A stretch of 64,000 nt of DNA from Octopus sinensis (Eukaryota): assembly GCF_006345805.1 (NCBI RefSeq), contig NC_043006.1:48360001-48424000 (forward strand). Direction: 5' to 3'. The stretch's first letter is position 1. Each line of letters begins with the position of its first letter. Below, piece after piece: positions 6,790-53,247 of the stretch. The position numbers and the translations under genes are program-made. Below the pieces are notes generated by a model. The model was not told the DNA's origin. It worked only from the letters and a program-made list of their open reading frames with translations, and made no database searches.

Positions 6790-7172
6790 AAATACCTATT
6801 TCTCTACTACCCACAAGCACAGAGAGGACAAACAAGGACAGACAAACGGTTTAAGACGATTAGATCGACCCCAGTGCATAACTGGTACTTATTGAATCGA
6901 TCCCGAAAGGATGAAAGGCAAAGTCAGCCTTGGCGGAATTTGAAACCAGAACGCAACGGCAGACAAAATACCTATTTCTTTACTACCCACAAGGGACTAA
7001 ACACAGAGAGGACAAACAAGGACAGACAAACGGATTAAGTGCATAACATCGACCCCAGTACGTAACTGGTACTTAATTTATCGACCCTGAAAGGATGAAA
7101 GGCAAATGCGACCTCCTCGGAATTTGAACTCAGAACGTAACGGCAGACGAACTACGGCTACGCATTTCGCTG
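6790..7172 (-). mobile_element. SINE family B tandem (head-core-tailA-core-tailA)
   Basis: Two cores and two ctacccacaaggg..ggacaaacaaggacagacaaacgg tails joined at aaatacc. Confidence 0.85.
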
Positions 7173-8104: not shown

Positions 8105-9940
8105 TTTCTATACTAGGAACAAGGCCCGAAATTATGGGGAAGTAGGGCAATTGATTAGATCGACCCCAATACGTAAATGGTACTTAATTTCTCCACCACG
8201 AAAGGATAAAAGGGGGAAAGTCGACCTCGGCGGAATTTGAACTCAGCGTGTAGAGACAGACGAAATACTGCTAAGCATTTCGCCGAGCGTGCTACCGTTT
8301 CTGCAACCTTGCTTAAAGACTAATATTAAATTAAATACGATCTAAAGCTGCAAATTAAGCAAATTTTGCATGGTGGTAGAGTTACGAAAATATACAAGAC
8401 TTTCCTAAAAGTTTAGAATATAGGACGATATATTTGTCATAAAATTGCGATTGTGGGATTGTAGTAATTAGTTGAAAAACCAATCCTGAACTTTGGAAGG
8501 TAAATTCGGAGAAATATTCTTTCCTACTCAAGGTACAAGGCCAGAAATTTGGTGGGGGCAGTCGATTAGAACGATGCCAGTACGGAACTGGTACTTAATT
8601 TGTTGACCCCGAGAGGATGAAAGGCAAAACCGACCTTGGCGGAATTTGAACTCAGAACATAAAGACACAAAATACAGCTACGCATTTCGTCCGGCGTGCC
8701 AACGCTTCATATTTCTTTATTGCCCACAGGGGGCTAAACACAAACGGGACACACAAGGACAGACAAAGGAACTAAGTCGATTATATCGATCCCAGTGTGT
8801 GACTGTTGCTTATCTAATCGACTCCGACAGGATGAAAGGCAAAGTCGACCTCGGCGGAATTTGAACTCAGAACGTAAAGACAGATAACATGCCACTAGGC
8901 ATTTAGCCTAGCGTGCAAACGTTTCTTATTTCTTTACTGCCCACAAGGGGCTACCCATAGAGGGGACAAACAAGAACAAACAAACGGATAAACTCAATTA
9001 TATCTACTTCAGTATGTAACTGGTACTTATTAAATCGACACCGAAAGGACAAAAGGCAGCAAAGTCGACCTTGGCAGAATTTGAATTCAGCACGTAAAGA
9101 CAGACGAAATAGTGCTAAGTATTTTACCCGGCATACTAACGTTTCTACCAGCTCGCCGCCTTACTTGAGGAATGACATTAATTCAAATAATAATGCAAAT
9201 TAAGCAAATTTTACATGGTGGTGGAGTTATGAGAATATACAGGACTTTCCTAAAAGTTTAGAATATAGGACGATATATTTGCTTTAAAATCACGATTGTA
9301 GGATTGTAGTAATTAGTTGAAAACCAATCCTAAACTTTAAAAGACAAATTCGGAGACATAATGCTTTCTACTCTAGGAACAAGGCTAAAAAATCGTGGGG
9401 AGGGGCTAGTCGATTAGATCGACCCCAGTACGTAACTGGTACTTAATTTATCGAACGCGAAAGGTTGGAAAGCAAAGTCGACATCGGCGGAATTTGAACT
9501 CAGAACATAGTCAGACAAAAATACCTATTTATTTACTACCCACAAGGGGCTAAACACAATCATGACAAACAAGGACAGACATACGGATTAAGTCGATTAA
9601 ACCGACCCCAGTGCATAACTGGTACTTATTTAATCGACCCCGAAAGGATGAAAGGCAAAGTCGACCTCGGCGGAATTTGAACTCAGAACGTAATGGCAGA
9701 CGAAATACCTACTTCTTTACTACTGACAAGGGGCTAAACACAGAGAGGACAAACAAGGACAGACAAACGGATTAAGTCGATTACATCGACTCCAGTGCCT
9801 AACTGGTACTTATTTAATCGATCTCGAAAGGATGAAAGGTAAATGCGACTTCGGCGGAATTTGAACACAGAACGTAACGGCAGACGAAATACGGCTACGC
9901 ATTTCGCCCGGCGTGCTAACGATTCAGCCAGCTCGCTGCC
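8105..9940 (-). mobile_element. Dense array of SINE family B copies
   Basis: At least seven cores (cgaaaggatgaaaggcaaagtcgacctcggcggaatttgaactcag) with tail A and tail B variants. Confidence 0.85.
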
Positions 9941-31246: not shown

Positions 31247-33354
31247 AGATACATATATAAACATATATACATATATGTAAACAGTTGGATATATATACAT
31301 GTATTCGGAAATATATGTGTATATACATACATACATACATACATACATGCATACATACATACATGCATGTGTGTATATACGTATGCATGTATGTAAAAAC
31401 CCATAAATATTAGTTGAAAGCCTGCAAGCAACATGCCTGATAACAGCAACATGTCTATTTAGTTGCAAAGAAAACAGACTCCCATTGATGAAACTATAAT
31501 TTCGTGTAGATGCACCATTATTTATTTCCACCTCTTTACAAGCAATTCTTTGATCGCATCTGAAGATCTGCTGACAAGGAAATTGCAGCATATCGAATTA
31601 AATCACGTGAACTGCAGGTCAGGCTTTCAATATTCTTGAAGAAACTTCCACAGCTATTGGCCTTTATTTTCTATTGTCGGCATAGCAACAAAATTACTTC
31701 TAAATCTAAAATTCTTAAAGATCAAAAGAGATACCTCAGTGACATTTGTGTGTGTCTGTGTATGTATCTGTTGTAGGAATATTTTAAAGCGCTTGCATAT
31801 GTACTTGCGTATTTGCGTATGTGTACATTTGTGTATACGTCTCTGTTTCAATGTCTATATGTGTTTCTTTTGGCGTGTTTATTTATTTGCCTTGTGTGTG
31901 CATTTATGTGTGTATATGCATATATGCGTTTATGTATCCTTTACATTTTTAAATCTTTATAGTTTCATCATACCTTGGTGAATGTAATCCACTGGTTACA
32001 GTGCTCGTATAAAGCCAGGCTGTACGTGGCATTGCCCAGTGGACAGTGGCAATCAGTTGCAGCCAGTTAGCTTGACAGCAAGTAGAAGCCATATCTCCCG
32101 CCACCGAAATTATTATTTTGATTTAGTGTGAGTCAGTCTGCTGCCACTGGACACTGGACTTACCAATTTTATAATGAACAGTGGCAATCACTTGCAGGCC
32201 GTTGGTTTGACAGCATGTGACGCGTGGTCATTGTGATTTACAGTATGTATACTGACCAGTGGACACTGGAATCACCAATGGACATTGTGTGGGTGTGAGA
32301 AGAGGAGCGTGTTGTATGACCTGGATTTTTTTCTTTTTTATAATATTGTTGATAGTTGGTCAGTGGTAAACCCAATGTCCAGTATTATTGCCAGTCTGTC
32401 TGGACTGGAGGCTTGAACTAATAAATCTAGTGGAGATAATAGAAATATGAAGACGAAAGGTTAACACTGTCTCTGGGGAATGTGTGAAGGGATCAGTACA
32501 GATGAAAAGGAAGTTGGTCAATGACCTTGTGAGCAAATCATTAACCTTGGGCTAATATAAACCTAAGGTGCATTGCATTGTGGTTGATGCTTAGTAATAG
32601 GTCATCAGTCAAACAATACTCGGATATAAGACCAAAAGTGTTCCATTCGTGACCGTCTTTTTCCTGGGTATTTTAATGTTCAAACTAGTAACTCTGATAT
32701 ATTACGCATCATAATCACAGATGTTGATAAGAGCTTATGTAGTCTTGATCTTTAAGACACACGTCCGTAAATACACGAGGAGAGACTTTCAGGTGAAGAA
32801 ACATTTATTGTAGTGCTTTTCATAGAAAAGGTGCGCGGTAGCCCCGACCCTGACTCTAGAAATGGCCTGCTGAGATCGAAAAAGGATTAGACAAATTGCC
32901 TTGTTTAATGAAATGAAGGTACTAATTCAGATGTTTGGGAGAGCTTATGTAATAATGATATCAAAAGAAGACACAAGTCTATAAGTATTAATGGGAGTTT
33001 AGTTAGTACGGATTTCAAAATAGGATGCTACTTCACAGATATAGAAGAGGGTTTATATAATGCCCATATCTAGCATACTAGCACTCAGATGCTGGAGAGG
33101 GTTTGATCCTCTGGATCGTCAACAGTATTTTTTTCGATAATACAGTTCATATATTAACTGCAGAATCTGCTTCTATACGACTTCTCCATCATGTCTGATC
33201 CTCGCAAAACTCGTTCTAAACGCCTTCCTCAATTCTACTTCCCATAATCTTAACCCTTCTCGACATGTTCTATATGGCATAGTGGTTAAGAGCGCGGGCT
33301 ACTAACCCCAAGATTCCGAGTTTGATTCCAGGCAGTGACCTGAATAATAATAAT

Positions 33355-33730
33355 AAGATCAGTAAATATAAAGACTTGCTAATAGAAATTGAAAAAATGT
33401 GGCATCTCAAGGCGATTACAGTACCAGTGATCGTAGGAGCTCTAGGAATGATAAGAAAAGGTACTGAAACCTATTTGAAAATGATACCAGGCTTACTATC
33501 CCTACAGGAAGTGCAAAAAATTGTGTTAACTGGAACGGCGTGTACTAAGAAGAGCATTATCGCTGTGAAAACAACATCCATTTATGAATTTATTTATTAA
33601 TTTTTTAAATACATATTTTACCTGTGAATTTGCGTGTGTAAACTGGGAATGCATACCATTAGCTTCCCTGCCCTAGGTGTAAGGAAAACACTCGGCGAGA
33701 AACGGAAGAAAATTTGAAGAAAGAAGGAAA
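33355..33730 (+). mobile_element. 5'-truncated Dong/R4-clade LINE (restriction-like endonuclease C-terminus + 3' UTR) in (AAT)n
   Basis: ORF 33322-33600 KISKYKDLLIEIEKMWHLKAITVPVIVGALGMI..LQEVQKIVLTGT fits the RLE KxxKY..VPVVIGALG motif; AAT repeats on both sides. Confidence 0.85.
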
Positions 33731-33823
<93 letters not shown>

Positions 33824-33887
33824 TAATAATAATAATAACATTGAAAATTACCTTAGGAATGAGAACCCAGGTTCAAAATTTCCCCAA

Positions 33888-33933
33888 GACACCTGATGAA
33901 GGCTAGGCGGTATATTAGCCGAAACATTGTGTT
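33888..33933 (+). ncRNA. Minimal type I hammerhead ribozyme motif
   Basis: gacac CTGATGA a ggcta-ggcggtatat-tagcc GAAA ca TT gtgtt; stem III ca is probably CpG-decayed cg. Confidence 0.7.
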
Positions 33934-34414
33934 TACAACAAACAAGATGAGGAAAAATATCCGTCAAAGGTAAATAATGTAAATAAAGTATTTTCCGAAT
34001 AATTTATTTTATTCACCCTTTGAAGGACGAAAAATAAAGATGATCCAACATTAATGAAATTACAATTTTAACGGATGTAACTAAATACTGCCCTCCATTG
34101 TTCCTTTTATCTTGCTGTATTCTACCATACAAAGTGAAACTGTGCAGGAGAAGCGTTAATGAAGAAAGCAGAATATGTCGTGAAGGGTTAAGGTTATGGG
34201 AAGTAGAACTGAGGAAAGCGTTTAGAACGAGTTTTGTGAGGATCAGACATAATGGAGAAGTTGTAAGGAAGCAGATTCATTTTGCAATGAACTGCAAACT
34301 TAAAGGCACCTTAGGGGCAGCTCGTGGAGTTATAACGAGAGACGGATTAAGTCTACGACCCAAATTAAATCTACCATCCAAATTATTTTAAAGTAGCTGT
34401 TACATGTTATAACA

Positions 34415-34870
34415 TATTGGTTTCAAATTTGGACATAAGGTCAGCAATTCCGGGGGAGGGAGCAAATCGATTACATCGTCCCTAATATATAACTGGTACT
34501 TAGGTGATCGACACCGAAAGGAAGAAAGGCAAAGTTCACCTCTGTGGAATTTGAACTCAGAACCTAATGACAGAGAAAATGTCGCTAAGCATTTTGCCAA
34601 GCGTGCCAACGCTTCTGCCAGCTGACCGCCTTTACATGTTATAGCGTATTATTACACATTTTGCGAGGCGGCGATCTGGCAGAATCGTTAGCACGCCGAG
34701 CGAAATGCTAAGCGATATTTCGTCTGTCTTTACGTTCTGAGTTCAAATGCCGACGAGGTCGACTTTGCCTTTCATTCTTTTGTGGTCGATCAAATTAGTA
34801 CCATTATACGTACTGGGATCGACTTAAACGCTTTCCCTAAATTATATTCTTTGTGCCTATAAGAGAAAAA
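34415..34870. mobile_element. Two head-to-head SINE family B copies
   Basis: Minus copy 34415-34632; plus copy 34665-34870. Confidence 0.8.
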
Positions 34871-52592: not shown

Positions 52593-52850
52593 GTGGAGGC
52601 ACATGGCCTAGTGGTTAGAGCAGCGGACTCGCGGTCGAGGGATCGCGGGTTTGAATCTCGGGCGATGTGTGTATTTACGAGCGAAACACCTAAGCTCCAC
52701 ACGGGTCCGGCAGAAGGTAATGGCGAACTTCTGCAAACTCTTTCGCCACAGCTTTCTCTCACTCTTTTCTCTTGCATCTTGCAGCTTACCTGCGACGGAC
52801 CGGCACAGGAAACCGGAAAACCGGCCCTTACGAGCCACGGATAGCTCAAG
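52593..52850 (+). mobile_element. SINE family C subfamily
   Basis: gtggaggcacatggcctagtggttagagcagcggactcgcg (TCG anticodon-like)..gggtttgaatctc. Confidence 0.85.
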
Positions 52851-53247
52851 AATGACAAACAAATTTATTTCAAGTATTAAGTCCAAGTCACTGAGTGAGG
52901 AAAACCCACTTCAGCCTACTTTCTTAACACTACTATTACAAAGGAGCCAGTGAGGGAGCCTCTATGTGATCAGTTCTTAAAAGCAGCAACCAAGTTTCCT
53001 CAAATCAAATTGTGGTGACTTAGGAACATCATGATGGATAAAATATGTGCCTGGTTTCCCTGCAAATAAGAAAATGAACGGTCACAAAATGACTACCTTT
53101 GATTATACATCTATTTGATCAAGATTCATATGACATTGAATAATAACAATACGTTCGCTTCAAAAAAGTTTCTTTGGAATTGTTCTTCCTCCTATGCTAT
53201 CCATGAGAAAGTTGTCACCATTTATTCCCTTACAACCATTTCGAATA

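Follow-up and report, generated by a model that had tools for sequence, protein, structure and literature searches.

A Penelope-like element of Octopus sinensis with a tRNA-derived head in its pseudo-long terminal repeat

The element and its copy in the window

We analyzed a stretch of 64,000 nucleotides of Octopus sinensis DNA (the window; contig NC_043006.1, positions 48,360,001 to 48,424,000), which contains a short repeated unit between positions 33272 and 33990. The initial annotation had described this unit as a candidate ribozyme-bearing short interspersed element (SINE), and the parts it named, an A box, a B-box-like motif, an (AAT)n spacer, a nested insert and a minimal type I hammerhead, are all found where it placed them (Table 1). 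With very little doubt the unit is the solo pseudo-long terminal repeat (pLTR) of an autonomous Penelope-like element (PLE) of the Poseidon clade, and this pLTR has a tRNA-derived head.

Table 1. Parts of the pLTR copy in the window and the repeat inserted in it
Feature	Position	Strand	Remark
tRNA-derived head of pLTR	33272..33342	+	copy begins near base 5 of the head
A box	33275-33285	+	perfect; within the head
B-box-like motif	33318-33329	+	a single C>T away from the family's perfect B box
(AAT)n spacer of pLTR, first part	33343..33356	+	read from the sequence
Later insert in the AAT spacer, from the 3' end of a long interspersed element (LINE) of probable Dong/R4 type	33357..33730	+	outside the element
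(AAT)n spacer, second part	33731..33838	+	read from the sequence
Short 5' untranslated region (UTR) of the PLE open reading frame (ORF)	33839..33858	+	20 nt
First ~44 codons of the PLE reverse transcriptase (RT)-endonuclease ORF	33859..33990	+	ATG 33859-33861; stops at the first of the two 3' end points of the family
Minimal type I hammerhead inside the coding frame	33888..33933	+	predicted cut after 33928

The coding partner was reached by walking upstream of the head. Some copies of the unit share sequence there, and a search with that sequence led to the end of a GIY-YIG ORF and then to an RT domain. Other copies extend beyond the tail, the segment that follows the spacer, into the start of the same RT and GIY-YIG ORF. 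Tandem junctions that run from the ORF end through head, AAT tract and tail into the ORF start are present at loci L225, L227 and L228. Linkage to the ORF on both sides and these junctions together identify the unit as a pLTR. Along the element, the ORF stop is followed after 29 nt by the tRNA head, and then come (AAT)n, the 20-nt UTR, the ATG, the hammerhead, the two points at which copies end, and the rest of the ORF. The tail consists of the 5' UTR and the first ~55 codons of the ORF, whose frame starts at the ATG within the tail (33859 in the window) and reads through the hammerhead. The initial annotation was right to regard the tail as Penelope pLTR sequence. Its proposal that a SINE had captured a pLTR has the direction reversed, since the autonomous element itself has the tRNA head within its pLTR.

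The column majority of the copies gives a single 832-codon RT and GIY-YIG ORF, about six codons short owing to a deletion in the seed copy, followed by the stop and the 29 nt that lead to the head. Natural frames open from the tail ATG include one of 391 aa (L233/L441) and one at L425, and reach up to 401 aa. A Pfam search with the natural 391-aa N-terminal piece returned no real match; relatives of the element carry the RT domain (PF00078). None of the 50 regions examined from a search with the Pfam GIY-YIG model, for which 150 of 5029 candidates were scored, bore the tail.

The majority protein is 56.5% identical to P0001, its closest foreign relative, 36.9% identical to the anole protein P0020, and 28-29% identical to two further PLE ORFs from the same genome. 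In a quick tree the element falls among Poseidon-type proteins, as sister to P0001 in a group with anole P0020 and apart from the two other ORFs. We infer that P0020 is PAc itself, the PLE of Anolis carolinensis. P0001 retains the same frame across the ribozyme. Other PLE families of the genome (L121, L130-L133 and others) have open frames of 762-883 aa and different hammerheads, and some of them look young. A related ORF region at L299 has a hammerhead inside the matched span and may be a copy that was rearranged or nested.

The column majority of 81 tails keeps the hammerhead core intact, including the palindromic GAAACGTT, and the full core is kept in 51 of 169 copies that were not selected on the ribozyme. 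The same motif lies 3' of the ORF in 21 related loci from other organisms, and a minimal hammerhead of this architecture has been described for metazoan PLEs (PMC4209133). Hammerheads of this minimal PLE type were found inactive as single motifs (PMC4209133), which makes self-cleavage by one copy alone doubtful. A dimer fold with a palindromic stem III is predicted, and in our model cleavage by the hammerhead would require a dimer or the help of a protein, and would part the ATG from the ORF. No peak at the cut site was seen in the reads of three RNA runs.

The copy in the window is degraded. Its ORF start is 92% identical to the family majority and is interrupted by an acquired stop, and position 16.2 of its hammerhead (33926) has changed from G to A. 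The hammerhead folds with a stem I of 5 bp, a stem II of 6 bp and an unpaired A after A9. The B box and the ribozyme each carry a single change, and this copy is probably dead. Neither the head nor the hammerhead was called by Rfam or ARAGORN.

The insert in the AAT tract spans 374 nt and comprises the ~70 last codons and the 3' UTR of a LINE, probably of the Dong/R4 type as judged by a motif; Pfam and PDB searches with it found no match. It is missing from all 29 other tail-picked loci, and sister insertions occupy the same tract at L240 and L191. At least three other repeats have landed in the (AAT)n tract of the pLTR, namely two Dong/R4-like 3' ends and one short unidentified repeat; the many copies with such insertions include L007, L042, L157, L160, L191, L240, L119, L165 and L198.

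Two further kinds of repeat were observed in the window. Positions 52594-52900 hold a second, unrelated tRNA-like head with A- and B-like boxes; the body behind it differs, and it probably belongs to another SINE family. A further abundant repeat of ~184-217 bp, which resembles a conserved-domain SINE, is present as tandem and single copies at 6818-7155, 8577-9104, 9408-9892 and ~34480-34820.

Copy number and copy ends

A genome search gave 1160 head candidates and 1845 tail candidates, of which 40 each were scored. The tail lies on the same strand within 320 nt of the head in 26 of 29 head-picked loci. This confirms the linkage on which the initial annotation depended and rules out a chance juxtaposition of head and tail at an AAT tract. 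One exact 35-nt hammerhead string occurs 1523 times genome-wide (0 for the reversed control) and is present in 13 of 169 copies not selected on it, from which we arrive at a rough estimate of 20,000 copies. With a median spacer of 37 nt in 162 uninterrupted copies, the typical unit measures ~300 nt, somewhat less than the ~340 bp first given. CpG-free 20-mers were counted genome-wide at three places in the element: 4938 for the head, 1073 for the 3' UTR ~65 nt upstream of it and 104 for the ORF just past the tail.

The 3' ends of 90 hammerhead-picked copies fall into two groups of 42 and 44, with four copies ending elsewhere and none continuing into the ORF. The loose ends of reads and contigs put the two end points sharply at a distance of 34 nt. 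The end at 33990 proposed for the window copy is one of them, and family members often extend 34 nt further to the other. The extra stretch is the optional 30-40 bp "tail" of PLEs, which published work has tied to two internal priming sites near the ORF start (PMC11167929).

The same 90 copies were classed by whether an inverted arm, unrelated sequence or an ORF end lies upstream. An inverted arm adjoins 46 of them, and the 3' end is often present on both arms, which fits priming from both strands of the cut, as with PAc in vitro (PMC11167929). We examined target duplications in 32 non-inverted copies. Fewer than 8 nt are common to the flanks in 27 of the 32; the remaining five share at least 8 nt (control 2%), and there is one clear 13-mer. 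The copies thus show the marks of PLEs, with two 3' ends, head-to-head inversions and mostly no target duplication. This supports the suggestion of the initial annotation that the unit could be mobilized by a Penelope RT rather than a LINE. Head-to-tail hammerhead arrays are absent from the 90 copies; no genome-wide array search was made. At L408-L447, many ORF-start fragments break off ~250-310 nt into the element, where a head directly adjoins them. These junctions suggest template jumps or a third entry zone, in a sample that was anchored nearby and may be biased accordingly.

A mechanism for these copies can be outlined. The RT-endonuclease would cut AT-rich DNA and prime at either of two sites 34 nt apart, like anole PAc in vitro. 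If the enzyme primes where pLTR and ORF first meet on the RNA, within the opening 165 nt of the ORF, and copies to the 5' end of the RNA, the product would be a SINE-like copy of ~300 nt; ORF-bearing copies would result from priming at a downstream junction. Priming from both DNA ends, together with fold-back of the cDNA and template jumps, would produce the head-to-head pairs.

Transcription and the origin of the short copies

The head aligns to genomic tRNAs with a score of 55.5, compared with 21.5 +/- 4.9 for shuffled sequences. The best match among 27 sampled tRNAs is Arg(TCT), in a sample that covers a minority of the isotypes; the head may also resemble tRNA-Arg(ACG). The majority head has a perfect A box and a perfect B box. 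An A box followed by a B box was found between stop and hammerhead in none of 21 relatives for which this interval was in view; in L352 and L371, loose A- and B-like matches do not follow one another in the required order, and a relaxed ARAGORN search of the relatives gave noise.

The 5' ends of the copies cluster at the head. Among 46 forward heads in an unbiased set, 28 start at -17 to +12 relative to the head, 13 inside the head and five further upstream. Finer mapping of 112 heads that reach base 14 gave 65 starts at -12 to +2, with peaks at -7/-6 (21), 0 (14) and -2 (9); ten reach -40 or beyond. The base at -6 lies 13 nt before the perfect A box. A cDNA that ends at this base has a 4-bp hairpin at its terminus; exact fold-back junctions of this kind number 357.

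Runs of at least four T terminate transcription by RNA polymerase III (Pol III) in animals. The sense strand of the 2496-nt majority ORF has no TTTT run, where 4.3 are expected from base shuffling (P 0.007) and 2.9 from codon shuffling (P 0.024). The natural ORF segments (n = 57) hold 19 such runs in 50 kb, or 0.38 per kb. Three intact ORFs of other PLE families in the genome hold 9, 9 and 10. For related loci from metagenomes, 80 were collected and 71 measured, and nine were set aside because they were short or duplicates. The 44 of similar T content hold 201 runs in 70 kb (2.9 per kb). The 5' ends piling up 6-7 nt before the head and the ORF free of TTTT point to Pol III transcription of a protein-coding retrotransposon, although an element that depends on making its own protein would not be expected to rely on this polymerase. 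We lean, by a little, toward the view that the tRNA-derived A- and B-box head drives Pol III through the PLE ORF. Transcription would start mainly at the G 6 nt before the head, and the polymerase would be Pol III, reading through because the sense strand lacks TTTT.

A number of observations weigh against this view. TTTT rates in the controls spread from 0 to 12 per kb, with one of the 44 having none, the P value from codon shuffling is only 0.024, and the whole comparison rests on a single lineage. Three RNA runs gave nearly equal depth on both strands and no peak at either the start or the end of the element, a pattern to be expected where the reads derive mostly from copies embedded in host transcripts. 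Among 40 loci checked, none held an intact full-length copy. An uncapped Pol III RNA would have to be translated, which is unexplained. For long terminal repeat (LTR) elements with promoters of this kind, Kojima 2024 argues that the autonomous partners must use RNA polymerase II (Pol II) (PMC10886601), and the known PLE promoter mapped with reporters is a LINE-like internal promoter (PMC2377424). Finally, the strongest local hairpin in the ~870 nt scanned sits at the 5' pile-up, and stalling or fold-back there could create the boundary without an RNA end.

The hairpin is central to an alternative in which the head is a passenger: a tRNA-derived SINE would once have landed in the 3' UTR of the PLE, the RNA would be made by Pol II from further upstream, and the RT would stall or fold back at the start of the head. 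Starts on the near side of the hairpin, at +3 to +13 (32 of the 112 heads), are in keeping with this, as is the missing start peak in the RNA reads. However, the main 5' peak lies on the far side of the hairpin, and at L212, L418, L438 and L414 the -6 base directly abuts unrelated ORF sequence, as run-off followed by a jump would give. Hammerhead hairpins almost as strong are passed by most copies, and the lack of TTTT runs is left without explanation. We consider a passenger head unlikely.

A second alternative keeps the RNA start at the head and assigns it to Pol II, acting from an internal pLTR promoter as in Drosophila Penelope, with the tRNA boxes assisting or mere relics. PLE transcripts are known to begin inside the pLTR from an internal promoter (PMC2377424, PMC8557442), a capped Pol II RNA would solve the problem of translation, and the start bases are compatible with either polymerase. 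Yet the start is followed at 13 nt by a perfect A box and then by a perfect B box, and no TTTT occurs on the sense strand; we regard this alternative as improbable.

A larger scenario can also be drawn, to which we give slightly less than an even chance. A coding PLE would have exchanged its promoter for a captured tRNA gene and purged Pol III terminators from a 2.5-kb frame, and its end-to-end Pol III RNA would be translated without a cap. Internal priming on this RNA would have produced the ~20,000 SINE-like copies of the promoter repeat, which would be a route to the birth of a SINE from inside its partner element.

The short copies do not form a lineage of their own. No diagnostic site separates 124 solo from 30 ORF-linked copies, and their non-CpG divergence is 4.0% and 4.8%, respectively. 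Only two of 22 variable columns differ with p<0.05, one of them a CpG and the other at a copy end, and the one non-CpG variant is equally frequent in the comparison (8/29 versus 31/120). This likeness in age and variants argues against a separate SINE lineage; short copies appear to be shed by the same masters and not amplified independently. The unit does have the tRNA-derived A- and B-box head of a SINE. Its tail is the start of a PLE ORF and not a LINE-derived or simple-repeat tail with target duplications, and the 124 solo copies show no sign, against the 30 ORF-linked ones, of a lineage amplifying from its own copies.

That part of the family is a true self-propagating SINE, with solo pLTRs transcribed by Pol III at new sites and re-mobilized in trans by the PLE protein as a Penelope-dependent SINE born from its own partner, would agree with the 4.6 to 1 excess of head 20-mers over the adjoining 3' UTR 20-mer and with solo copies that retain both boxes and lack internal TTTT, but is very improbable given the shared variants described above and given that solo copies go no further than the priming sites, beyond which PAc requires ~55 nt of ORF (PMC11167929). 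Under the Pol III model that we favor, solo copies would mostly be dead ends.

Relation to known systems

Ohshima and Okada reportedly described tRNA-derived SINEs of octopus in 1994 (cited in PMC4758252), and either that work or Repbase/Dfam may already list the short unit as a SINE. In the literature searched we found no description of a PLE with a tRNA head in its pLTR; Repbase/Dfam and supplements were outside the scope of this search, and an existing catalogue entry is possible. Two cephalopod repeat surveys, in the parts available, list Penelope, Dong-R4 and SINEs without such an element. SINE-like solo pLTRs matter for the repeat annotation of genomes reported to be SINE-rich. Should the Pol III model fail, the element would still be a Poseidon element with an odd pLTR.

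The closest known system is PAc of Anolis carolinensis and the Poseidon PLEs (PMC11167929). The features shared with these elements are a single RT ORF with a C-terminal GIY-YIG domain, a pLTR, a minimal hammerhead that overlaps the start of the ORF, a pair of 3' end points separated by 30-40 nt, AT-rich flanks, and tandem and inverted copies. In contrast, the octopus pLTR has a tRNA-derived A- and B-box head and an (AAT)n tract, a combination found in none of the 21 relatives, the ORF is free of TTTT, and ORF-bearing copies are far outnumbered by solo pLTRs, whose 5' end is sharp. Internal priming, so far shown in vitro for one PLE, could in this way fill a genome with SINE-like solo pLTRs.

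The initial annotation was not aware of the pairing of a tRNA-promoter SINE with a Penelope pLTR as a standard SINE class. A precedent for joining Pol III with a hammerhead exists in the schistosome Sm-alpha and Sj-alpha elements (PMC2770079, PMC6765202), which likewise consist of a tRNA-derived Pol III unit and a hammerhead and number tens of thousands of copies. However, the available descriptions present these as non-coding, tandem and self-cleaving, with no link to a PLE ORF, whereas the octopus ribozyme is a minimal PLE hammerhead within a coding frame. The animal non-LTR retrozymes (bioRxiv 10.64898/2026.07.22.740005) are also non-coding type I hammerhead units from PLE pLTRs. They are defined as head-to-tail tandem arrays, with no mention of tRNA or Pol III in the text, and the octopus copies are single or head-to-head.

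A promoter derived from a small RNA and placed in a terminal repeat, with a proposed origin by SINE insertion, is shared with Cassandra, Helenus and Ajax, grouped as "TRIMp3" (PMC10886601). These are short non-coding LTR elements of 311-1263 bp with two LTRs, a primer-binding site and a polypurine tract; in contrast, the octopus repeat is a PLE pLTR flanking a coding ORF, in an element that encodes its own protein of ~840 aa. Pol III promoters are known from non-coding retroelements such as SINEs, Cassandra and Helenus, and a coding PLE driven by a tRNA-type promoter, if true, would be an exception.
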